A stretch of 13,407 nt of DNA from a virus. Taxonomy: Duplodnaviria; Heunggongvirae; Uroviricota; Caudoviricetes. Within the stretch, counting starts at the first letter, position 1, and every line of letters begins with the position of its first letter. The stretch spans positions 1 to 13,407 of the IMG/VR virus record IMGVR_UViG_2537562172_000003, one strand, 5' to 3'. Below are positions 1 to 13,407 of the stretch, piece after piece. Both the position numbers and the translations under genes were made by a program. Under the pieces are notes generated by a model that was not told where the DNA came from, did not search any database, and worked only from the letters and a program-made list of their open reading frames with translations.

Positions 1-1284
1 TTACTTCTTCGCCTCTGCAACCACTTTACTACCCACGCCGCGGTTATTGTATTCCCACATGCGGTTGTAGTTAGTGTCATTCAGATTGCGCTGTATTTCG
101 TCGTTATCATCTACGCTGCCGGTATTACCCGCAAACGGACGATTAGAGATCACCGCATCGGCCCACGGTTTAGCCGTGTTAAAACCTTCGTTGATGGCGC
201 TATCACGGATCACCACCTGACCGTTGGTATTGGCATCAACATCCAGCGAGCGGCCCAGTTGCGCCACACCATCACCGAAAGCATTGAAACGGCTGTTTAC
301 GGCGAGGAAACCGTAGTAAATGTTGGACAGCGTAGCCGGTGCAAACACATACGCTTCTTGCTGAGTACGTGAGTTCACCACGCGGAATTCGGTGTTATCG
401 AACACCACTGCGCCGCGACCAGAAACGATATCCACATCCCCTTCAATGTAGCTGTTGGTCACCAGCGTACGCGGCTGACGATTTGTTTCCAGACGGTTCT
501 GCACACCGCTGTTGGTGACAAAGAAGGTGTTCTGACGACCGAGAATGTTAACGTTGTTAATCTGTACCTGGTCACCATCAGTACGCAGTGCCACCGCCGG
601 ATGGTTACCTGCATCTACGCTATCGCCCAGCGTGTTTTCGATGGTCAGATTTTGCAGTTGCAGGCCATTGTTTTGTGACCAGAAGACCGCAGAGCAGAGA
701 ACACCGATACTGTCGCTGCGTTTGCTCTGGCAGCTATCGTACATATACCACGCTGGTTTACCTGGCATATATTTGCCGCGCGGGTTGACGTCGTGACGCC
801 AGTCGGCAGGGCTCATGCCACCATCAAGGGAAAGCCCAATCTTCACATCAATCGGTTTTTCACCTGTACCGTACAGAGTAATTCCACCCGGAGCGGCAGG
901 GACATATACCGTTCCCTGATACTCACCAGGCATCACGGCAATATACTGGCGCTTGTTGGTACGCTTGATAATTGCCGCATCTACCGCCGCCTGAATCGTG
1001 GTATGCGTTACACCTTGAGTGCCCGCCGGGCCGACAACAAAGTCAGGTTGCGCAGGCAGGGTAATCGGGGAAGGATTCCACGCTGCAGCACCTGGTGTCA
1101 GGGATGCAAAATAGTGTTGAGCATCGAAATTCTGCGCTTCTTTTGCCGACAGAATCGGGCGAGAAGAGGTACCAGGCGCGGTTTGATCAGAAGGACGTTG
1201 ATCGGGCGGGGTTGAGCTACAGGCGGTCAGCGTCACGCCAAAAGCCAATGCCAGCGCCAGACGGGAAACTGAAAATGTGTTCAC
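1..1284 (-). CDS. ybhC: YbhC-type lipoprotein (pectinesterase-like fold; annotated in E. coli as putative acyl-CoA thioesterase); host gene flanking att-lambda
   Basis: Complete 427-aa ORF, TAA stop at 1-3, GTG start at 1282-1284 preceded by GGAG. N-terminus MNTFSVSRLALALAFGVTLTACSS is a lipoprotein signal with lipobox LTAC. Sequence recognised from memory as E. coli YbhC, whose gene neighbours attB-lambda. Confidence 0.85.
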   Translation of the reverse strand: MNTFSVSRLALALAFGVTLTACSSTPPDQRPSDQTAPGTSSRPILSAKEAQNFDAQHYFASLTPGAAAWNPSPITLPAQPDFVVGPAGTQGVTHTTIQAAVDAAIIKRTNKRQYIAVMPGEYQGTVYVPAAPGGITLYGTGEKPIDVKIGLSLDGGMSPADWRHDVNPRGKYMPGKPAWYMYDSCQSKRSDSIGVLCSAVFWSQNNGLQLQNLTIENTLGDSVDAGNHPAVALRTDGDQVQINNVNILGRQNTFFVTNSGVQNRLETNRQPRTLVTNSYIEGDVDIVSGRGAVVFDNTEFRVVNSRTQQEAYVFAPATLSNIYYGFLAVNSRFNAFGDGVAQLGRSLDVDANTNGQVVIRDSAINEGFNTAKPWADAVISNRPFAGNTGSVDDNDEIQRNLNDTNYNRMWEYNNRGVGSKVVAEAKK

Positions 1285-1330
1285 AGGTTGCTCCGGGCTA
1301 TGAAATAGAAAAATGAATCCGTTGAAGCCT

Positions 1331-1422
1331 GCTTTTTTATACTAAGTTGGCATTATAAAAAAGCATTGCTTATCAATTTGTTGCAACGAACAGGTCACTA
1401 TCAGTCAAAATAAAATCATTAT
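1331..1422. other. attL: Lambda-type attL (B-O-P'): 15-bp core plus P' arm
   Basis: Exact lambda core GCTTTTTTATACTAA at 1331-1345. P' arm follows: IHF H'-like TATCAATTTGTTG at 1371-1383, Int arm-type sites AGGTCACTAT (1393-1402), CAGTCAAAAT (1402-1411), AAAATCATTAT (1412-1422) overlapping the int stop codon. Bacterial flank TGAAGCCT precedes the core. Confidence 0.88.
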
Positions 1423-2489
1423 TTGATTTCAATTTTGTCCCACTCCCTGCCTCTGTCATCACGATACTGTGATGCCATGGTGTCCGACTTATGCCCGAGA
1501 AGATGTTGAGCAAACTTATCGCTTATCTGCTTCTCATAGAGTCTTGCAGACAAACTGCGCAACTCGTGAAAGGTAGGCGGATCCCCTTCGAAGGAAAGAC
1601 CTGATGCTTTTCGTGCGCGCATAAAATACCTTGATACTGTGCCGGATGAAAGCGGTTCACGACGAGTAGATGCAATTATGGTTTCTCCGCCAAGAATCTC
1701 TTTGCATTTATCAAGTGTTTCCTTCATTGATATCCCGAGAGCATCAACATGCAATGTTGTTGGGATGGCAATTTTTACGCCTGTTTTGCTTTGCTCGACA
1801 TAAAGATATCCATCTACGATATCAGACCACTTCATTTCGCATAAATCACCAACTCGTTGCCCGGTAACAACAGCCAGTTCCATTGCAAGTCTGAGCCAAC
1901 ATGGTGATGATTCTGCTGCTTGATAAATTTTCAGGTATTCGTCAGCCGTAAGTCTTGATCTCCTTACCTCTGATTTTGCTGCGCGAGTGGCAGCGACAGG
2001 GTTTGTTGTTATATGGCCTTCAGCTATTGCCTCTCGGAATGCATCGCTCAGTGTTGATCTGATTAACTTGGCTGACGCCGCCTTGCCCTCGTCTATGTAT
2101 CCATTGAGCATTGCCGCAATTTCTTTTGTGGTGATGTCTTCAAGTGGAGCATCAGGCAGACCCCTCCTTATTGCTTTAATTTTGCTCATGTAATTTATGA
2201 GTGTCTTCTGCTTGATTCCTCTGCTGGCCAGGATTTTTTCGTAGCGATCAAGCCATGAATGTAACGTAACGGAATTATCACTGTTGATTCTCGCTGTCAG
2301 AGGCTTGTGTTTGTGTCCTGAAAATAACTCAATGTTGGCCTGTATGGCTTCAGTGATTGCGATTCGCCTGTCTCTGCCTAATCCAAACTCTTTACCCGTC
2401 CTTGGGTCCCTGTAGCAGTAATATCCATTGTTTCTTATATAAAGGTTAGGGGGTAAATCCCGGCGCTCATGACTTCGCCTTCTTCCCAT
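1419..2489 (-). CDS. int: Lambda integrase (tyrosine recombinase), 356 aa
   Basis: ORF translation matches lambda Int essentially along its whole length as remembered (MGRRRSHERRDLPPNLYIRNNGYY ... DDRGREWDKIEIK); overlaps xis 3' end as in lambda; adjacent to the P' arm. Confidence 0.96.
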   Translation of the reverse strand: MGRRRSHERRDLPPNLYIRNNGYYCYRDPRTGKEFGLGRDRRIAITEAIQANIELFSGHKHKPLTARINSDNSVTLHSWLDRYEKILASRGIKQKTLINYMSKIKAIRRGLPDAPLEDITTKEIAAMLNGYIDEGKAASAKLIRSTLSDAFREAIAEGHITTNPVAATRAAKSEVRRSRLTADEYLKIYQAAESSPCWLRLAMELAVVTGQRVGDLCEMKWSDIVDGYLYVEQSKTGVKIAIPTTLHVDALGISMKETLDKCKEILGGETIIASTRREPLSSGTVSRYFMRARKASGLSFEGDPPTFHELRSLSARLYEKQISDKFAQHLLGHKSDTMASQYRDDRGREWDKIEIK

Positions 2490-2685
2490 TTCTGATCCTC
2501 TTCAAAAGGCTACCTGTTACTGGTCGATTTAAGTCAACCTTTACCGCTGATTCGTGGAACAGATACTCTCTTCCATCCTTAACCGGAGGAGGGAATATCC
2601 TGCACTCGCGTACCCATCGACGAACTGTTTCAAGGCTTCTTGGGCGTCGCTGGCGTGCGTTCCACTCCTGAAGTGTCAAGTACAT
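2467..2685 (-). CDS. xis: Lambda excisionase, 72 aa
   Basis: Translation MYLTLQEWNARQRRPRSLETVRRWVRECRIFPPPVKDGREYLFHESAVKVDLNRPVTGSLLKRIRNGKKAKS matches lambda Xis; 23-nt overlap with int. Confidence 0.96.
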   Translation of the reverse strand: MYLTLQEWNARQRRPRSLETVRRWVRECRIFPPPVKDGREYLFHESAVKVDLNRPVTGSLLKRIRNGKKAKS

Positions 2686-2711
2686 CGCAAAGTCTCCGCA
2701 ATTACACGCAA

Positions 2712-2733
2712 GAAAAAACCGCCATCAGGCGGC
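2712..2733 (-). terminator. Putative intrinsic terminator between the 55-aa ORF and xis
   Basis: Minus-strand hairpin CCGCC-TGAT-GGCGG (plus coordinates 2719-2732) followed by a T6 run (A-run 2713-2718 on the plus strand). Confidence 0.4.
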
Positions 2734-2892
2734 TTGGTGTTCTTTCAGTTCTTCAATTCGAATATTGGTTACGTCTGCATGTGCTATCTGCGCCCACAGC
2801 ATCCAGTGGTCATAGCAGTCGCTGATGTTCTCGGCTTCGATAACTCTGTTGAATGGTTCTCCATTCCATTCACCTGTGACTCGGAAGTGCAT
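2725..2892 (-). CDS. Small 55-aa hypothetical protein upstream of xis (probably the lambda orf55 equivalent)
   Basis: Not in the ORF track (under 60 aa). Minus-strand ATG at 2890-2892 preceded by GGAG; translation MHFRVTGEWNGEPFNRVIEAENISDCYDHWMLWAQIAHADVTNIRIEELKEHQAA; stop at 2725-2727. The 39-nt gap to xis matches what I recall for a 55-aa ORF in lambda, from memory only. Confidence 0.5.
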   Translation of the reverse strand: MHFRVTGEWNGEPFNRVIEAENISDCYDHWMLWAQIAHADVTNIRIEELKEHQAA

Positions 2893-2904
2893 TTATCATC
2901 TCCA

Positions 2905-2929
2905 TAAAAAAAACTCGCCGTAGCGAGTT
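2905..2929 (-). terminator. Putative intrinsic terminator
   Basis: Minus-strand hairpin AACTCGC-TACG-GCGAGTT (plus 2912-2929) followed by a T7-8 run. Confidence 0.4.
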
Positions 2930-3088
2930 CAGATAAAAGAAATCCCCGCGAGTGCGAGGATAGTTATTCATTGTCGATATTTACATTTATTTCGAATATC
3001 TTTACTGGGTAATCGCCAAAGTCATATATTTTTTATTCTGTTTTATAAGCACTACCAAGTACTGCTTATTACAAATAAGAAAAGGCTG

Positions 3089-3118
3089 AAAAAAATATTT
3101 AAGGCCACAACTGTGGCC
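3089..3118 (-). terminator. Putative intrinsic terminator downstream of the DUF1311-like gene
   Basis: Perfect 6-bp stem GGCCAC/GTGGCC with 4-nt loop (3103-3118) just after the stop at 3129, followed on the minus strand by a T-rich run (plus-strand A-run 3089-3097). Confidence 0.45.
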
Positions 3119-3128
3119 CTAAATTTAC

Positions 3129-3827
3129 TTACGGCACTGCGTTAATCAGATTACAAATACCTCTTTTGGCAGGGTCTGAATTCAACTTCTGAAAATTGGC
3201 GTTCAACATAGCCGTGTGTAAGTGATTCTCAACCTCAAAGAATAGGTCGATTTTGCCCTCTTTGGCTGCCTGTTTCTTCCAAATATTCACTTGGTCATCA
3301 GCAATACGACTAGCGCAAGTGAACAAGAACGAACTGCCTCTAGGAATGGATGTCGTGCTGTAATACTCACCATCTACTTCTACATATTTAGCTCGGAATG
3401 ACTCTAAGGTTAGCTTATTGCCGTTCTTGACCGACTTAGCTTCTGCCTTACTTGTATCTTCCTGCTCTTTAGAATGTTTCTGCGCCGACGTGGGTATGTC
3501 ATTGGCCGCTGTTACGCTGACTGAACTCCCCAAACCTTTGAGGCCATTAATTTGGATAAGATAAGCCAGCTCCAGAGCCTTATTATCAGTGAGTTTTCCA
3601 CGCATATTTACCCACTGACGTTGAACCATTTTTAGGGTGTCTGCGTTCTCTGGGTTTCCTTTGAGGGCACTAGAATAGGCAGAGCTAAGCTGTTCGTCTA
3701 ATTTTGACAGACGTTCGTTCTCGCAGATTTTATGTTCGATTGCTGTCGAAGCCTTTTGGCAGTCAAAGCTGGCTGCAAATGCACCCGGCGATGCCACTAA
3801 CAATGATGCCAGTAGGATATTTTTCAT
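3129..3827 (-). CDS. Secreted protein with an N-terminal DUF1311 (LprI-like lysozyme-inhibitor) type domain, 232 aa; non-lambda cargo
   Basis: ORF 3129-3854; preferred start is ATG at 3825-3827 (MKNILLASLLVASPGAFA, signal peptide with AFA-A cleavage motif) preceded by GGAG. Mature N-terminus SFDCQKASTAIEHKICENERLSKLDEQLSSAYSSAL resembles the conserved Cys-containing DUF1311 motif, assigned from memory. Not a lambda gene. Confidence 0.7.
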   Translation of the reverse strand: MKNILLASLLVASPGAFAASFDCQKASTAIEHKICENERLSKLDEQLSSAYSSALKGNPENADTLKMVQRQWVNMRGKLTDNKALELAYLIQINGLKGLGSSVSVTAANDIPTSAQKHSKEQEDTSKAEAKSVKNGNKLTLESFRAKYVEVDGEYYSTTSIPRGSSFLFTCASRIADDQVNIWKKQAAKEGKIDLFFEVENHLHTAMLNANFQKLNSDPAKRGICNLINAVP

Positions 3828-3957
3828 ATTCACTCCATAAATACAAAAGCGCATTACTATAGCACTTAACCGATCGCTTATCTCGCCCGTTCGTCATTCT
3901 TATCTAACCAGAACATGCGACTGCCACAGCACATGTCGAGGATTGCTGCATGTCCAG

Positions 3958-4371
3958 TCACTGGTTGCCTCCTTTGCGAAGCTGGGCGGCTAACTCATCA
4001 CATATGTGCGTCAAAGAGCAAAGTTTGATTGATGGATGTTCGCGCATCATCTCCACCCCCTGCGCCCGTACTTCAGCCAGGAAAGCATCGGTGGCTGGCA
4101 TATTTCCTGTTGCCTTCATGGCCTCCAAAATAACCAGAACACCATCTCTCCCAATCTCCTCGCAGATAACCTCGGTGCTGTCGCCAACAACATCGCAGAA
4201 TTCCTGAACTGCTTTACGAGCCAGCTCATTCTCCGCCGCCAGCGCCGAAAACTTCTCGTGTGCCAACTTAACAGCTGCATCAGCCTGCTTAATTGACTCA
4301 GTCGCTTTCTGGTGGTCTTCGGCCAGCCCTGCTAAATCAGCCTCCAGTTCGGCTACGGGACCAGCCATCAA
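3958..4371 (-). CDS. Hypothetical 137-aa protein (coiled-coil-rich N-terminus), possibly a remnant or fusion at the substitution junction
   Basis: Longest ORF in this segment and in the same orientation as the operon. Its first codons lie inside the bet remnant in another frame, so the true start is uncertain. No motif recognised. Confidence 0.35.
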   Translation of the reverse strand: MMAGPVAELEADLAGLAEDHQKATESIKQADAAVKLAHEKFSALAAENELARKAVQEFCDVVGDSTEVICEEIGRDGVLVILEAMKATGNMPATDAFLAEVRAQGVEMMREHPSIKLCSLTHICDELAAQLRKGGNQ

Positions 4372-4606
4372 CGCCCACCACCGGAACGATGCCGTTCTGC
4401 TTATCAGGGAAGGCGTAAATTTCTTTCGTCCACGGATTAAGGCCGTACTGGTTGGCGACGATCAACAATGCGATGAACTGCGCATCGCTGGCATCACCTT
4501 TAAATGCCGTCTGGCGAAGAGTGGTGATCAGTTCCTGTGGGTCGACAGAATCCATGCCGACACGTTCAGCCAGCTTCCCAGCCAGCGTTGCGAGTGCTGT
4601 ACTCAT
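4337..4606 (-). pseudogene. bet: Truncated lambda bet (Red-beta): first ~84 codons, then 5 unrelated codons and a stop
   Basis: Translation MSTALATLAGKLAERVGMDSVDPQELITTLRQTAFKGDASDAQFIALLIVANQYGLNPWTKEIYAFPDKQNGIVPVVGVDGWSR matches the lambda Bet N-terminus, then diverges (SRTGG-stop); lambda Bet is 261 aa. exo is absent. Confidence 0.88.
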
Positions 4607-4611
4607 CCGTT

Positions 4612-5028
4612 TTATACCTCTGAATCAATATCAACCTGATGGTGAGCAATGGTTTCAACCATGTACCGGATGTGTTCTGCCATGCGCTCCTGAAACTCAA
4701 CATCGTCATCAAACGCACGGGTAATGGCTTTTTTGCTGGCCCCGTGGCGTTGCAAATGATCGATGCATAGCGATTCAAACAGGTGCTGGGGCAGGCCTTT
4801 TTCCATGTCGTCTGCCAGTTCTGCCTCTTTCTCTTCACGGGCGATCTGCTGGTAGTGACGCGCCCAGCTCTGAGCCTCAAGACGATCCTGAATGTAATAA
4901 GCGTTCATGGCTGAACTCCTGAAATAGCTGTGAAAATATCGTCCGCGAAATGCCGGGCTGATTAGAAAAACAGGGAAGGGGGGTAGTGAATGCTTTTGCT
5001 TGATCTCAGTTTCAGTATTAATATCCAT
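4612..5028 (-). CDS. gam: Lambda Gam (RecBCD inhibitor), 138 aa
   Basis: Translation matches lambda Gam ([15 protein letters not shown]...[10 protein letters not shown]) with a few substitutions relative to my recollection (e.g. SLPPFPV here vs SLTPFPV). Confidence 0.95.
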
Positions 5029-5126
5029 TTTTTATAAGCGTCGACGGCCTCACGAAACATCTTTTCATCGCCAATAAAAGTGGCGATAGTGAATTTAGTC
5101 TGGATAGCCATAAGTGTTTGATCCAT
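4962..5126 (-). CDS. kil: Lambda Kil (FtsZ-inhibiting host-killing protein), here 54 aa (about 47 aa in lambda as I recall)
   Basis: Start [47 protein letters not shown] at 5124-5126, overlapping the cIII 3' end and the gam 5' end as in lambda. The ORF runs 7 codons further (YPPSLFF) than the remembered lambda stop. Confidence 0.7.
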
Positions 5127-5259
5127 TTTTTGGGACTCCTGGCTGATTAAGTATGTCGATAAGGCGTTTCCATCCGTCACGTAATTTACGGGTGATTCGT
5201 TCAAGTAAAGATTCGGAAGGGCAGCCAGCAACAGGCCACCCTGCAATGGCATATTGCAT
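5095..5259 (-). CDS. cIII: Lambda CIII (FtsH/HflB inhibitor), 54 aa
   Basis: Not in the ORF track (under 60 aa). Minus-strand translation from ATG 5257-5259: [54 protein letters not shown], matching lambda CIII; preceded by TAAGGAG. Confidence 0.92.
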   Translation of the reverse strand: MQYAIAGWPVAGCPSESLLERITRKLRDGWKRLIDILNQPGVPKNGSNTYGYPD

Positions 5260-5331
5260 GGTGTGCTCCTTATTTATACATAACGAAAAACGCCTCGAGT
5301 GAAGCGTTATTGGTATGCGGTAACGCCGCGC

Positions 5332-5700
5332 TCAGGCGGCTTTGATAGTCATATCATCTGGATCAAATATTCCTGATGTATCGATATCGGTAATTCTTAT
5401 TCCTTCGCTACCATCCATTGGAGGCCATCCTTCCTGACCATTTCCATCATTCCAGTCGAACTCACACACAACACCATATGCATTTAAGTCGCTTGAAATT
5501 GCTATAAGCAGAGCATGTTGCGCCAGCATGATTAATACAGCATTTAATACAGAGCCGTGTTTATTGAGTCGGTATTCAGAGTCTGACCAGAAATTATTAA
5601 TCTGGTAAAGTTTTTCCTCTGTCATTACGTCATGGTCGATTTCAATTTCTATTGATGCTTTCCAGTCGTAATCAATGATGTATTTTTTGATGTTTGACAT
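5332..5700 (-). CDS. ea10: Lambda Ea10-like early protein, 122 aa
   Basis: 122-aa ORF 72 nt upstream of cIII, the same size and spacing as lambda ea10 as I remember it; SD GAGGA upstream of the ATG. Acidic C-terminus. Confidence 0.7.
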   Translation of the reverse strand: MSNIKKYIIDYDWKASIEIEIDHDVMTEEKLYQINNFWSDSEYRLNKHGSVLNAVLIMLAQHALLIAISSDLNAYGVVCEFDWNDGNGQEGWPPMDGSEGIRITDIDTSGIFDPDDMTIKAA

Positions 5701-5719
5701 CTATTCATATCCTCACAGA

Positions 5720-5746
5720 TAAAAAATCGCCCTCATACTGGAGGGC
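5720..5746 (-). terminator. Putative hairpin/terminator upstream of ea10
   Basis: Minus-strand stem GCCCTC-CAGTAT-GAGGGC (plus 5729-5746) followed by GATTTTTT. Confidence 0.35.
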
Positions 5747-5861
5747 AAAGAAGATTTCCAATAATCAGAACAAGTCGACTCCTGTTTAGTTACGAGCGAC
5801 ATTGCTCCGTGTATTCACTCGTTGGAATGAATACACAGTGCAGTGTTTATTCTGTTGTTTG

Positions 5862-5889
5862 CGTGAAAATGAAACCCGCCTGAGCGGGT
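5862..5889 (-). terminator. Putative intrinsic terminator downstream of the orphan 289-aa gene
   Basis: Minus-strand stem ACCCGC-TCAG-GCGGGT (plus 5874-5889) followed by TTTCATTTT; overlaps the stop codon at 5889-5891. Confidence 0.45.
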
Positions 5890-6758
5890 TATGACCACTT
5901 TTTGTTTGGATTTCGTTGGTGAGCGTGGTTTACAGGATTATTTGATATACCCCATAACTCTGACTCGCTTATCTCTACACGAGAGAAAGACCTGCTTTCT
6001 TTCAGTTCTTTTATAAACCTAGAACCTACGATGACATCTATTGTCCCAGAAAGTTCTTGTAAAAGATCTTTGTTTTTTCTGAGGAAGAAAACATCTTCTT
6101 TATATTTAATTTTTACATAGAATTTATTCTGTATTTTTAATATATCAAAGCATGGCAGATATCTATATCCCTCATGCTTTCGCCACTGCTTAACAATTAT
6201 AACATCTCTTTCATTTACTGCATTAATCAGCCCAAGACCAAGTATAGGTATGAATATTCTATTGTCTGCCGAAAGCGTACAATTATTACCACCAGGCAAA
6301 TATGTATAAATCATGTCGGAATTTTTATACGCATCAACGAATGCACGTAAGAATCGTACATATTTTTGCCATCCGTTTATACCAAATTTACCATATAAGT
6401 ATTCTTTATTTGTTAGAAGAAAACTATTTGTATCAGGAGCCTTATCTACAGACCTGTCGATAAGATCTCCAACTACGTTTACAAAGTCAAAGACAGAGTT
6501 TAATAAGAACAATTGTCTTTCAGTCGGGCGAATTTCAATTATGTAGCCTGGATGAAGACGATATTGCATCTGCTTACGAAGTATGCTGAACGCTTGGGTC
6601 CGGGCATCTGAAAGCAACTTCCTGTCGCCATCGCCGTGAGCATTGTTTCTAATAAAACTGATATAATTTGCTAATTTTTCAGCCTCTTTTTTGTGTTTTT
6701 TTCGCTCTGATGCTGAGTCTATTGGTTTTGGTATGGACTTGTAATCAATTTTCTTCAT
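5889..6758 (-). CDS. Orphan AT-rich protein of unknown function (289 aa from ATG 6758; 293 aa from ATG 6770), in the ral-sieB slot; candidate superinfection-exclusion or abortive-infection factor
   Basis: Uninterrupted 294-codon ORF; visibly AT-rich compared with flanking lambda genes. First ATG (6768-6770) overlaps the N stop codon (ATGA); second ATG (6756-6758) has a well-spaced GAGG SD. Lys-rich N-terminus; no Walker, HTH or catalytic motif recognised. Not a lambda gene. Confidence 0.75.
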   Translation of the reverse strand: MKKIDYKSIPKPIDSASERKKHKKEAEKLANYISFIRNNAHGDGDRKLLSDARTQAFSILRKQMQYRLHPGYIIEIRPTERQLFLLNSVFDFVNVVGDLIDRSVDKAPDTNSFLLTNKEYLYGKFGINGWQKYVRFLRAFVDAYKNSDMIYTYLPGGNNCTLSADNRIFIPILGLGLINAVNERDVIIVKQWRKHEGYRYLPCFDILKIQNKFYVKIKYKEDVFFLRKNKDLLQELSGTIDVIVGSRFIKELKESRSFSRVEISESELWGISNNPVNHAHQRNPNKKWS

Positions 6759-6766
6759 TACGTACC

Positions 6767-7090
6767 TCATGCCAATGGAATGGATTTCCCTTTAACCTTT
6801 TGTCTTCCTTGACAAGTTATACCGAACTCACTTGGCTTGCTATACCAAACTCGATGATTCTTGCGCTCAATACGTTGCAGGTTGCTTTCAATCTGTTCGT
6901 GGTATTCAGCCAGCACCGTAAGGTCTATCGGATTCAGTGCGCTTTCTACTCGTGATTTCGGTTTGCGATTCAGCGAGAGAATAGGGCGGTTAACTGGTTT
7001 TGCGCTTACCCCAACCAACAGGGGATTTGCTGCTTTCCATTGAGCCTGTTTCTCTGCGCGACGTTCGCGGCGGCGTGTTTGTGCATCCAT
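6767..7090 (-). CDS. N: Lambda N antiterminator, 107 aa
   Basis: Translation from MDAQTRRRERRAEKQAQWKAANPLLVGVSAKPVNRPILSLNRKPKSRVESALNPIDLTVLAEYH... matches lambda N (arginine-rich motif at the N-terminus). The track ORF extends 26 codons upstream into the leader. Confidence 0.93.
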   Translation of the reverse strand: MDAQTRRRERRAEKQAQWKAANPLLVGVSAKPVNRPILSLNRKPKSRVESALNPIDLTVLAEYHEQIESNLQRIERKNHRVWYSKPSEFGITCQGRQKVKGKSIPLA

Positions 7091-7248
7091 CTGGATTCTC
7101 TTGTCAGTTAGCTTTGGTGGTGTGTGTGAGTCGTAGTCCTGAACGAAAACACCCCACGATTGGCTCATTTGCAGCTAATCCGGATTCGCACTTCCGGCCA
7201 ATGCTTCGTTTCGTATCACACACCCCAAAGCCTTCTGCTTTGAATGCT

Positions 7249-7280
7249 GCCCTTCTTCAGGGCTTAATTTTTAAGAGCAT
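7249..7280 (-). promoter_or_regulatory. nutL: nutL (boxB hairpin and boxA)
   Basis: Minus-strand reading TGCTCTTAAAAATTAAGCCCTGAAGAAGGGCAGCA: boxB GCCCTGAAGAAGGGC (plus 7249-7263) and boxA-like TGCTCTTA (plus 7271-7278), about 160 nt upstream of the N start as in lambda. Confidence 0.88.
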
Positions 7281-7312
7281 CACCTTCAATGGTGGTCAGT
7301 GCGTCCTGCTGA

Positions 7313-7393
7313 TGGCTTAAAATTACAAGAAAGATTGTATGTTGTAAACAAGAAATATTGTAAAAAAGGGGCATGAAAAACAAACTCCATTGT
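7313..7393 (-). promoter_or_regulatory. pL promoter with phage-434 OL operators
   Basis: Three 14-bp 434-type operators ACAAGAAAGATTGT (7325-7338), ACAAGAAATATTGT (7348-7361), ACAAACTCCATTGT (7380-7393). Minus-strand -35 TTTACA (plus 7343-7348) and -10 TAATTT (plus 7320-7325) with 17-bp spacer; start near 7313 (ATCAGCAGGACG, lambda-like). Confidence 0.75.
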
Positions 7394-7443
7394 TTTTAAA
7401 CGGAAAATAGTTTGTTTTTTGGTTATCGAGATTGAGGTGGGGA

Positions 7444-8799
<1,356 letters not shown>

Positions 8800-8807
8800 G
8801 ACATTCC

Positions 8808-8839
8808 CGCTCTTACACATCCCAGCCCTGAAAAAGGGC
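8808..8839 (+). promoter_or_regulatory. nutR: nutR (boxA and boxB)
   Basis: boxA CGCTCTTA at 8808-8815; boxB hairpin GCCCTGAAAAAGGGC at 8825-8839; followed by the lambda-like cro-cII leader. Confidence 0.88.
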
Positions 8840-8918
8840 ATCAAATTAAACCACACCTATGGTGTATGCATTTATTTGCATACATTCAATCAATTGTTAT
8901 CTAAGGAAATACTTACAT

Positions 8919-9350
8919 ATGGTTCGTGCAAACAAACGCAACGAGGCTCTACGAATCGAGAGTGCGTTGCTTAACAAAATCGCAATGCTTGGAACTGAGA
9001 AGACAGCGGAAGCTGTGGGCGTTGATAAGTCGCAGATCAGCAGGTGGAACCCTGAGACGGTCGCAAGATGGCTTGATGCGATGGCAAACCTTGAGCGACG
9101 AAACGCGCAGTTTAATGAGTTTAAAGCCGAGTGGATGAGCGCGAATGGCAATCCAGGACAATCGCGTAATGGCGGTCAGATATTGGGGTTGGATGTTAAA
9201 AAAGGTGAATCATTGGGGAGTGCCGTTAAGCGGTATATGTCAATGAATACTGACGCAGCGCCAGCACAAGATTCGACACCTTCAGGAGAACCACGGTATC
9301 AGGTTGGATCATATACCTCAAAATCAGGCATTCAATTTACGGTGGAATGA
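8919..9350 (+). pseudogene. cII: Truncated cII: codons 1-43 fused in frame to ~100 codons from the 3' end of a late (gp20-like ejection protein?) gene
   Basis: MVRANKRNEALRIESALLNKIAMLGTEKTAEAVGVDKSQISRW matches lambda CII residues 1-43; after about 9047 the sequence is unrelated to CII (lambda CII is 97 aa). The stop overlaps the start of the gp16-like gene, which suggests the tail of the upstream gene in a P22-like late operon. Confidence 0.75.
8928..8941 (-). promoter_or_regulatory. CII-binding site of pRE (TTGC-N6-TTGC)
   Basis: Minus-strand TTGCGTTTGTTTGC inside the first codons of cII, as in lambda pRE. Confidence 0.5.
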
Positions 9351-11191
9351 TGAAAGTAACTGCAAACGGTAAGACATTTACCTTCCCTGATGGTACGAGC
9401 ACGGAAGATATTGGCACCGCCATTGATGAGTATTTTGCTGGTCAGGCTGTTCAGCAACAAACAGTTAATCAGGCCAATAATGCACCAACACGGGAAGAAC
9501 CATCATTAATGCAACAAGCTGGCGATTGGCTCACTGGTGGTCAAAGTGCAGGGCAAATTGCAGAACAGGCTGGTCGTGGTCTGGTAAACATACCATTTGA
9601 CGTATTGCAGGGTGGCGCAAGTCTGATTAATGCAATCAGTCAGGGGCTTGGTGGGCCAAAAGTATTGGATGATGTCTATCGTCCAGTCGATCGACCGACA
9701 GACCCTTATGCGCAAGCTGGAGAAACAATTGGCGGGTATTTAGTTCCAGGAGTTGGAACGGCAGGAAGCATGGCTATTGGATCACTGGCAGAGGCCGCAA
9801 ATCAGAAAGGCGATTTCGCACAAAATGCAGCTAAAAATGCCGGAGTTAACCTTGTCGCTCAGGGTGTTCTTTCCGCAGCAGCAAAGGGAATAGGGCGTGG
9901 AATAACGGCTATAAAAGGTGATATTGCGCCAGAAGTGGCGAAGAAAATTGCCACATCAGAATCGATGGGCGTGACACCAATGACATCTGATGTTATCCCG
10001 CCGAAAAATGCTTTCACTCGCGGCCTTACTCAGGATTCCGAGGGGGCTTTGCTCGGGACAGGCTCAAAGCGAGCGGAGCAATATGCAACGCGTAGTAAGC
10101 TGGTAAGTAATTATTTTGACCGTTTTGGTGAGTACAACCCGGATGATGTGGTGAAATCTCTGACCACCACGTTAAGGGGGCGGAAGGATGCCGCTGGCGC
10201 TGTTATCAATGACGTCACCAATAAAATGGGTAATGCCGCAGTTGATACCACAAATACCATGAATGCTCTGAATACAGCGATCGCAAGACAGGAACGGCTT
10301 GGGACGTCTGCTAATCAAAGCCTGCTTACATCCTTGCGTAACCTACGTGAAGAATTAGCAAACCCTGCAACTGATTTGGATGTTACGTTTGATCTCTTGC
10401 GTCAGCATAGAACGGCATTTAGATCTAATGTTCAGGGAGATGCTATGGTCTTCCCCAACCAGGCAAAAGCAGCTACCAATATGGTAGAGAATGCAATGTC
10501 AAAAGACCTTCGTAACGCAGTTGCTAAAAACCTCGGTGCTTCAGACGCAGCAAAATACCTTAAAGCAAATTCCGATTATGCAAACGTTTATAATAAGGTG
10601 CTTAATAAAAACATTGCTAACAAGCTCAACAAGGCAAGCAGTGAAGCCAGTCCTGAACTTATAAATACCGTTGTATTAAGCAGAAAACCATCTGACGTGA
10701 AACGAATTTGGAGCGCATTGGATGATAAAGGGAAAGATGCTATGCGTGCAGCTTACGTCAGCAAAATAGCGGAAAAGGCCGGTGACTCTCCAGCCAAGTT
10801 CATCACTGAAGTTAATAAGCTGAAATCTCAGTCAGGTGGTGAAATTTACAACACTATTTTTTCTGGAAAGCACATGAAAGAGCTTGATGCTCTTCATGAA
10901 GTTCTACAGCAAACAGCAAGGTCAGACACCGCAAATGTAGTAACTCAGACGGGGCAATCGCAAGCCAACAGGATAAGGACGATTGGCGCAACTGCGACTC
11001 TTGGCGTATCAATGGGGATTGAGGCTGGTTTCGGTGCAATGATGCGCTTGTATGAGTCCAAAGTAGCAAGGAATGCTCTCTTACGTCTGGCAAACACTAA
11101 AGCTGGAACGCCGGCTTATGAAAGAGCGCTAAATAATGCTGCAAATGCGATACGCCCTATACTTGCAAGCCAGATTACAGCAGAACAATAG
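9347..11191 (+). CDS. P22 gp16-like ejection (DNA-transfer) protein, 614 aa
   Basis: Large Ala/Gly/Gln-rich protein; size and position (immediately before the tailspike) fit gp16-type injection proteins; start ATGATG overlaps the upstream stop (alternative start 9350). Confidence 0.65.
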
Positions 11192-11242
11192 ATAAATAAT
11201 TAATTAAGCACATAACTACTGACAGATAACCAACGCAACGAC

Positions 11243-11264
11243 CCAGCTCCGGCTGGTTTTTTTA
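11243..11264 (+). terminator. Putative intrinsic terminator after the ejection-protein gene
   Basis: Hairpin CCAGC-TCCG-GCTGG (11243-11256) followed by T7 (11257-11263). Confidence 0.5.
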
Positions 11265-11321
11265 TTCCAAAAATTCACCGTAGCCACGCTGCGGCGATTC
11301 CTTGCATCTGGAGCAAATTAA

Positions 11322-13407
11322 ATGACAGACATTACAGCCAATGTGATCGTATCGATGCCTTCGCAACTCTTCACTATGGCGCGTTCTTTTAAAGCCGTAG
11401 CCAATGGCAAAATTTATATCGGTAAAATTGACACTGACCCGGTAAATCCTGAAAACCAGATTCAGGTTTATGTAGAAAACGAAGATGGTTCTCATGTTCC
11501 TGTTTCGCAACCAATCATCATTAACGCTGCTGGATATCCGGTATACAACGGACAGATTGTCAAATTCGTTACTATACAGGGCCATTCTATGGCTGTTTAT
11601 GATGCGTACGGTTCTCAGCAGTTCTATTTTCCTAATGTCCTGAAGTATGACCCTGACCAATTAAGGCAAGAATTAGCTTCTGACAGAGGAGCAACATTAT
11701 CATTAAGTCAGATAGCTACTTCTTACGGTCTTGATTTCTCGTTAGGCGGTGTATGGCAGGAGGGGGCGTTATCTTATGTTGATAACTGGTGGTGGTATAA
11801 TAATAAAATCTACACCGGTGGTAGCGGAAATCTGCCATCTATCCCATCAGCACCGTGGTATCCAATTCGCCCGGGATACAATTTTAAACTTAACAGACTT
11901 TATTACCTCCAAGGGTGTGAGCGATATTCTTGACGTAGTGGACTGGCAATGGGCTTTTGATAGCGCAAAATTAAACGCCAAAAACACAACAGTTATAGAT
12001 ATGGACGGTCGTGAATACGCGGTTACCGGAGGCGGTTACGTTATGCATCAGGGAGTTAGTCTGAGAGGTGCTCGCGATGCTATGCAAAACCCTTCTGTCG
12101 ATGGTTTGAGTATTGTTTATATTAACAAGACACCTTCAGCCTCTGATGTCATTTTTATTCTACGCGGCGGAAACTTGCTTGAAGACTTTGGCGTCTACTA
12201 TGCTCAACAAACATATGCGGCGCTATCTGCCATGGTTGACGTCGGAATTCTGTTTAAAAAGCTACCAGGAACTGGTGGGACAGATGCTATAAATACAAAA
12301 GGCTGCATAGTTAAAGGGGTAAGCGCCTGCGGTGTGAGTAAGTTTTACTCCGGTTCTTATGCAGATAACGCGCCTGGTGAGTACGACGATGTTAGTCGAG
12401 TCGCTGTTACACCTACACCTTATGGGCCATCGTTTAGGCTTGGAATTAGCACAGACTTACTTCGATACCAAACTATTCATATAAACGCCAATGTCGTCAG
12501 TGCGTACAGAGCAAAGTACGGTGTTGACATTTCACCTCGTGCGCTACCATCAAGCTATACATCTTGCGTGGGATTTCTTGTTGAACGCGCGGATGGATGT
12601 ACGATTCACGACATTCTTACTTATGGTGTCCCGTATCCTGTCGTACTGGGCGCTGTTGGCGCTACCGGAGGGACTCATGGGTGCAGTGTCAATTTATCTC
12701 AATGCGCATTCGATGCAACGCAAACACCTGTCTACATAAACTGCCCGACAGGTGCGTTTGGTGTTCAACTTTCAAACTGTCAGGTTGTATTCGACGAGAA
12801 ATTCGGAGATTCTAACGGGCAATTAATATACTTAGGATCCGCGGCAAGCAATCATCAAGTCTCGCTTTCTAATATTAAAGTGCAAATGACAGCCAATTTT
12901 AGCTACCGACCTGTTCGCGCTGTTTCTGAGAGTAAACAAAACAGGATAATGTTTAGTGATTGCGCGTTAACAGGTAGCGCTAATAACCTTGATGAAGGAA
13001 CTGGCAACCGTATAAGTTTAATCCAAAGTACAAGGAATTTAGGTAACCTAAACTTAATGACCAATCTAACGCCGGAGAGTTCGTTGGTTTCAAGTATGGG
13101 GGAGCTCAATACTATTGTTAGACATTCAGTTAGTGTCACTGTTCAACAAGGAGCAACATTTGCGAACATCTCAGTTACATACCCTTACTCAGGATTTATA
13201 TCGGCACCTAATGTCAAGACAGAAATAACATCGGTTAGTATTTCTGGTCAAAGTGATGACACGATGTACACATCAAGGGCGTATGGCAGAAGTCAATCAG
13301 GGTGCGTCATCAGAGTGAACTTGTCGAAGGCTGCAGTGGCAACTGGTGCACTGACAGTAGATCTATACCTGATTGGAACAGTAAGGGGGGAACTAACATC
13401 TGTGTAG
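11322..13407 (+). CDS. P22/HK620-type tailspike: conserved N-terminal head-binding domain plus divergent receptor-binding domain; reading frame shifts +1 in the 11749-11933 overlap
   Basis: N-terminus [113 protein letters not shown] matches tailspike head-binding domains; SD GGAG upstream. The 11322-11933 ORF stops and the protein continues in the +1 frame (11749-13407, TAG at 13405-13407). Confidence 0.75.

Follow-up and report, generated by a model that had tools for sequence, protein, structure and literature searches.

A cII::gp20-type reading frame at a deletion junction in a defective prophage of porcine Escherichia coli

Gene content of the prophage

The stretch of DNA analysed here (the window; 13,407 nt, positions 1 to 13,407 of IMG/VR record IMGVR_UViG_2537562172_000003) starts at the ybhC stop codon and contains a prophage that occupies the lambda attachment site (ybhC/ybhB). 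Core matching and ORF calls place the lambda attL core (1331-1345, GCTTTTTTATACTAA), int (1419-2489; 356 aa) and xis (2467-2685; 72 aa) on the minus strand between 1331 and 2685, and both genes are full length. In E. coli ETEC4073, which is 99.96% identical to the window, the same core is found twice (L001 6533 and 25727), the second copy being attR, adjoining ybhB. The ETEC4073 prophage measures 19,194 bp (19.2 kb) from core to core and lies between ybhC and ybhB, with attachment-core repeats flanking the element at a known integration site.

The leftward genes are int, xis, an LprI-family gene, a truncated bet, gam, kil, cIII, a DUF2528 gene, an orphan of 293 aa and N. The place of the orphan (5889-6770, −), flanked by N on one side and the DUF2528/cIII genes on the other, is taken in lambda by ral and sieB; the ORF matched nothing in Pfam or PADLOC, and its codon content looks AT-rich by eye. 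Phage 434 has this region too, and its annotation there includes an overlapping "Nun C-terminal peptide-containing protein". A Pfam scan of the neighbouring orphan ORFs yielded nothing beyond LprI, DUF2528 and Acyl_transf_3.

Alignment to lambda imm434 reveals an intact phage-434 immunity region at 7845-8799, consisting of cI (7845-8477, −), the OR operators (8478-8583) and cro (8584-8799, +). CI is identical at 209 of 210 residues and Cro at all 71; the operators themselves are identical, and the operator region differs in the length of a poly-C tract only. More broadly, positions 4355-9049 are 98.4% identical to phage 434 at full coverage. The poly-C tract (8490-8497) is part of the cI leader, with the cI start codon on one side and OR3 on the other, and its length varies, with eight bases in the window and in strain S1191, seven in ETEC4073 and five in lambda imm434. 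This difference could affect cI expression or could be homopolymer sequencing noise. A promoter-like site at 8528-8556 corresponds to 434 pR.

To the right of cro, the cro-cII intergenic region leads into the chimeric ORF described below, followed by a gp16-type gene for a DNA-transfer/ejection protein (9350-11191, +; 613 aa) and a tailspike gene with a P22 head-binding domain (11322-13407, +). The gp16-type gene is intact, matches PHROG 770 over its full length (E = 8e-279), has PF26808 (Phage_P22_gp16) among its precomputed matches and is 99.7% identical to its counterpart in ETEC1716. It is full length (613-614 aa) in most contigs read, a conservation that may reflect chance or weak selection.

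Beyond the tailspike gene, ETEC4073 carries a gene for a wzy-like 446-aa protein, intS, IS100, an Acyl_transf_3 gene, the lambda attR core and ybhB. Replication, Q, lysis, terminase, portal, coat and head-completion genes were sought in the annotation of the whole 19.2-kb element, and none is annotated. The ETEC4073 annotation and the window ORF list thus describe a prophage devoid of replication, lysis and virion-assembly genes, in line with the first-pass annotation, which had called the element defective in replication and morphogenesis while retaining immunity, int and xis. That the missing replication and head genes lie just outside the window, in a rearranged order, is ruled out by what ETEC4073 has between its att cores.

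The right end of the ETEC4073 element (L001 18675-25830) has a structure of its own: a wzy-like membrane protein gene, intS, IS100, the acyltransferase gene and a fragment of a second intS. The intS gene carries one KplE1-type att core (CTGCAGGGGACACCAT, L001 21522), and a 75-nt 3′ fragment of the second intS is joined to the lambda P arm. IS100 apart, the block runs collinear with the argW region of 2018-01-1CC (L007 24352-29306), and it has the look of a segment of an argW prophage junction acquired by a phage whose present integration system is lambda int and att.

The chimeric reading frame and its junction

The first-pass annotation had described an ORF at 8919-9350 (+) that opens as lambda CII and continues as the unrelated 3′ end of a late gene, with a stop overlapping a gp16-like start. 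The coordinates are exact, and the ORF list, the translation and the parental alignments bear out this description. The ORF comprises 143 codons; its ATG at 8919 follows the ribosome-binding site native to cII, and its stop is the TGA at 9348-9350. It encodes residues 1-43 of CII followed by residues 369-468 of a gp20-type protein.

The cro-cII intergenic region and the first 43 codons of cII (8800-9047, +) are of 434/lambda type, with 99.6% identity to lambda imm434, HK633 and lambda; when the comparison with lambda imm434 DNA is extended to 9049 (again 99.6%), the single mismatch is at 8821. All 43 residues are identical to the CII of lambda imm434 (lambda/434), and the reading frame begins in the native position of cII, downstream of cro and with its own ribosome-binding site and start. 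The Pfam profile for CII (PF05269, Phage_CII) is matched at positions 1-46 of 91 only, short of a full-length domain. Unlike phage 434 and lambda imm434, the window has cII cut after codon 43 and lacks O, P and everything rightward.

The remainder of the ORF (9050-9350, +) is the 3′ end of a gp20-type ejection-protein gene, running from the third base of codon 369 to codon 468 and the stop. Residues 44-143 are identical at all 100 positions to residues 369-468 of a 468-aa "phage DNA ejection protein" of P13-6, and positions 9048-9500 show no mismatch to that region of P13-6. Positions 9050-9350 likewise match P13-6 and ETEC1716 without mismatch and are 98.2% identical to the DNA of phage N7, a Lederbergvirus whose annotated gp20 is 99% identical to the tail (tblastn). 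The PHROG 917 profile is covered at positions 378-509 of 509 by the chimeric ORF, with the tail matching at 412-509 (E = 5e-30), so that the alignment to gp20/gp7-family ejection proteins proposed in the first-pass annotation identifies the tail as gp20-type. In the full-length 468-aa homologue, the domain Inj_translocase (PF16928) lies at residues 10-225 (E = 2e-77); it is missing from the chimera, whose fragment starts at residue 369.

The C-terminal region retains its native setting directly upstream of gp16. The TGA at 9348-9350 and the ATG of the gp16-type gene share the A at 9350 (TGATG), and P13-6 and ETEC1716, in which gp20 and gp16 are both intact, have the same overlap. In its gp20 3′ end, its stop/start overlap and its gp16, the window is collinear with the gp7-gp20-gp16 cassette of the P22 family (Lederbergvirus; N7, ETEC1716, P13-6) at 98-100% identity; it differs from the cassette in lacking gp7 and the first 368 gp20 codons, PF16928 included, and from the family in lacking the sieA/mnt/arc/ant region between gp16 and tailspike. 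RefSeq flags only 8919-9095, as an incomplete "CII family" pseudogene, and does not recognise the gp20 fragment. The chimeric ORF has neither the C-terminal half of CII, the oligomerisation part, nor the Inj_translocase domain from the N-terminus of gp20, and we therefore regard it as most likely a by-product with no function.

We located the junction by aligning the window base by base to lambda imm434 and to the P13-6 gp20 gene. A 701-nt query spanning the join splits in BLAST into cII-type matches that end at 9049 and gp20-type matches that start at 9048, and the two alignments overlap by exactly 2 bases, the AA at 9048-9049 (+) common to both parents. Their E values (3e-126 and 0) show that the abutting of the two parental alignments is not due to chance. 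Base 9049 is the second codon position in either parent, which keeps the fusion in frame, an outcome with a 1-in-3 chance. The first-pass annotation had placed the fusion at codon 43; the count of 43 CII residues stands, and the junction codon proper is codon 44 (AAC, Asn), whose first two bases can be assigned to either parent.

A search for longer homology at the breakpoints returned AA only, the flanks being otherwise unrelated (5 of 13 positions match), and no IS sequence, flanking repeat or mobile element was found at the join. The breakpoint identity of 2 nt falls within the 0-10 nt that define a microhomology deletion. From this microhomology and from the absence of a repeat or IS at the join we infer illegitimate recombination, of which such a join is a typical mark.

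Distribution and ancestry of the junction

The identical junction occurs in three of 5,426 complete E. coli genomes (ETEC4073, ETEC4090 and ETEC1706), all from Belgian pig isolates, and the exact 143-aa protein is encoded on at least 24 further contigs, S1191 included. The junction 43-mer is present in all 10 loci read, and an exact 43-nt junction probe had no match among the IMG/VR viral contigs. Contig AFEA01000006.1 is 100% identical to the whole window. The corresponding assembly (AFEA00000000) is that of E. coli S1191, an O139:H1, stx2e strain from a pig with oedema disease (PMC3491183), which has been traced to Weinstein et al. 1988 (as cited in PMC3491183).

Since the same join is found in three independent complete genomes and on many contigs, it is real and inherited. 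We found nothing that speaks for an artefact of sequencing or assembly, or for residues 44-143 being the tail of a natural long CII variant, and we give these readings next to no credence. An assembly artefact is ruled out because the junction recurs in the three complete genomes as well as in numerous draft and Logan assemblies of independent origin; the long variant, which the first-pass annotation had named as a finding that would overturn its reading, is ruled out by a tail that is 100% identical to the C-terminus of the 468-aa ejection protein and lies in its native place before gp16.

An undeleted ancestor with both arms was not found in the 5,426 complete E. coli genomes or in 50,697 phage records, and the deleted content was therefore reconstructed from relatives. 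The interval equivalent to the deletion spans ~21.0 kb in vB_EcoP-720R6, an intact P22-like prophage, and ~23.2 kb in 2018-01-1CC, an IS3-family element included. These comparisons point to a loss of ~21-23 kb or more, and the "over 20 kb" of the first-pass annotation is a safe lower bound under either of the ancestries considered here.

The relatives of the two arms are of different kinds. On the left, those inspected are phage 434 (98.4% over 4.7 kb), the APEC O2-211 prophage (99.9%), which is a lambda-type siphovirus at the lambda attachment site, and AJ1, whose flanking host alleles are the same as those of the window element; all of them carry lambda-type siphovirus late genes. The P22-like phages Sf6 and Sf101 have 45-47% of the left arm in common at 98% identity. 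Relatives of the right arm are P22-like prophages with other early regions. Among them, 2018-01-1CC has an apparently intact P22-like prophage at argW with 434-type cI and cro and a right arm 98.8% identical to that of the window, and degraded P22-like prophages occupy the lambda site in ETEC1716 and P13-6, where lambda int and xis accompany the same gp20/gp16 and intS-acyltransferase right end as in the window element.

We slightly favour an ancestor that was one mosaic P22-like phage, with lambda int and xis and a 434-like early region, which lost ~21-23 kb. Such a phage is plausible because vB_EcoP-720R6 (ON470605), itself intact, combines lambda-type int and xis, a lambda cII (99.6%) and P22-like late genes in one element adjoining ybhB; it differs from the window in its early-left and immunity genes, in its gp20 and gp16 alleles and in being undeleted, with the ~21 kb still present between the equivalents of the two breakpoints. 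The case for a single mosaic phage is weakened by the left-arm relatives inspected, which have siphovirus and not P22-like late genes.

Alternatively, a 434-like siphovirus prophage may have stood in tandem with a P22-like prophage using lambda int and att, and one deletion from cII to gp20 would then have removed roughly 30-70 kb, an internal att site included. This tandem arrangement is a serious possibility, to which we give somewhat less than an even chance. It requires only entities actually observed and one deletion: the left arm is 99.9% identical to a siphovirus prophage at the lambda site (APEC O2-211) and 98.4% identical to phage 434, AJ1 has matching flanking host alleles, and P22-like prophages with lambda int and xis occupy the same site in sister pig strains. 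However, a much larger deletion is required, only two lambda cores are present with no trace of a third, and large parts of this early region do occur in P22-like phages, namely Sf6, Sf101, 720R6 and the prophage of 2018-01-1CC. The reconstructed size of a single phage also argues against a tandem. Taking 19.2 kb, less IS100 (~1.95 kb), plus the 2.3 kb of a second deletion (below) and 21-22 kb, the sum is ~40.6-41.5 kb, which fits a P22-like genome, although it separates the two ancestries weakly because any lambda-type left arm is ~10 kb. A normal P22-like genome is of this size. The functions lost are the same under single and tandem ancestry.

Decay of the remnant and its meaning

The cII::gp20 join is not the only lesion in the element. 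A second, independent deletion junction at 4354/4355, which is not part of the cII::gp20 join, was identified by comparison with APEC O2-211, relative to which 2,312 bp are missing across a 2-nt TA microhomology. Lost here are the end of an ea22-like gene, a TraR/DksA-family gene, a hypothetical gene, DUF1382, DUF1317, exo and most of bet. The ORFs affected are 3958-4371 and 4337-4606 (−); bet is cut to 89 aa, retains positions 5-67 of 198 of the RecT domain profile and is annotated in RefSeq as "recombinase RecT incomplete". This scar is present in every assembly covering the position, and as it too has a 2-nt microhomology, it points to the same decay process elsewhere in the element.

The tailspike gene is also damaged. 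In the window strain it is split into ORFs 11322-11933 and 11749-13407 by a +1 frameshift at 11882-11885 (TTTT in the window versus ATT in ETEC4073); in ETEC4073 it is a single ORF of 694 aa (PF09008, E = 6e-66). One Logan contig likewise has the gene intact. S1191 carries a frameshift in it, two assemblies have an IS3-family element inserted in it, and in three others it is fused to a truncated intS. The IS3-family element in the two assemblies (L012 and L013) is inserted exactly at the frameshift position (11884/11885), and the small lesion may be related to IS insertion or excision. The breakage of the tailspike gene by frameshift, IS insertion and deletion, independently in different strains, supports neutral decay. 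Of the single large deletion proposed in the first-pass annotation, the one cII::gp20 join holds, to which the 2.3-kb deletion and the tailspike frameshift have to be added.

Related elements show comparable structures. AJ1 has a short (783-nt) "replication protein P" gene directly after cII (L020 29337-30119) and nohD directly before a tail-assembly gene, and ETEC1716 and P13-6 have adjoining partial copies of DnaB-like and phosphatase genes and of terminase and tail genes (L002/L006 12246-12802 and 17458-17737). Deletion scars appear to be the rule at the lambda attachment locus.

We are highly confident that the cII::gp20 join is the genuine scar of one illegitimate recombination event, with the chimeric ORF as its by-product and a defective prophage as its outcome. 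Recombination of the microhomology-mediated, RecA-independent type, within a prophage at the lambda attachment site, would have joined base 2 of codon 44 of a 434/lambda-type cII to base 2 of codon 369 of a P22-family gp20-type gene. The early side would have been stripped of the remainder of cII, of the replication genes with the origin, and of nin, Q and lysis, and the late side of the terminase, portal, scaffold, coat, head-completion and needle genes, gp7 and most of gp20. The 19-kb prophage left behind would be expected to confer 434-type immunity and may still excise, and it would be unable to replicate, lyse the cell or build particles. Transcription of the chimeric ORF would be possible only once the 434-type repressor releases pR. 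The remnant is passed on vertically in a porcine oedema-disease/ETEC lineage, where its decay continues.

Could the fusion have been domesticated instead, with cII′-′gp20, gp16, tailspike and the wzy-like gene under pR/N control and functional? Either the gp20 C-terminal fragment or gp16 might interfere when superinfecting P22-like phages eject their DNA, or the O-antigen might be changed, following SOS induction, by the tailspike and the wzy-like gene. In favour of this, the join preserves both the reading frame and the native stop/start overlap with gp16, gp16 is intact in most contigs read, no strong terminator-like site was found from pR as far as the gp16 stop, the earliest good candidate being at 11243, and the scar persists from S1191 (Weinstein et al. 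1988, cited in PMC3491183) to the recent Belgian isolates. If this were true, an SOS-derepressed pR with N antitermination would drive CII′-′gp20, gp16 and, where intact, the tailspike and wzy-like genes, and the module would be retained for ejection interference or O-antigen remodelling, making the element a domesticated remnant and not neutral debris. We hold this to be very improbable. One in three random joins is in frame, the fragment lacks the conserved domains of both parents, the independent breakage of the downstream tailspike is a pattern of neutral decay, and a PADLOC scan of the neighbouring orphan ORFs for defence genes gave no matches.

As an internal-deletion remnant with att cores and some regulatory and integration genes, the element resembles the classical cryptic prophages of lambdoid type in E. 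coli K-12 (DLP12, Rac, Qin, e14 and KplE1/CPS-53); cryptic prophages are the subject of PMC3105296. KplE1, a 10.2-kb defective prophage, has no CI module (PMC2951348), whereas the repressor module is intact in the window. The locus is thus a case of ordinary prophage decay in a pig-pathogenic E. coli lineage, unusual only in that, unlike the K-12 cryptic prophages, both parents of its junction can be named to the base.

Beyond annotation the significance of the finding is small. It provides a base-exact case of a lambdoid prophage disarmed by a microhomology deletion with repressor, int and xis kept, and newly identifies a gp20 fragment at a spot that RefSeq annotates as a truncated cII only. 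The two fixed junctions constitute a lineage marker for porcine oedema-disease/ETEC strains related to S1191, and the chimera cautions against taking every in-frame chimeric ORF of a prophage for a gene.
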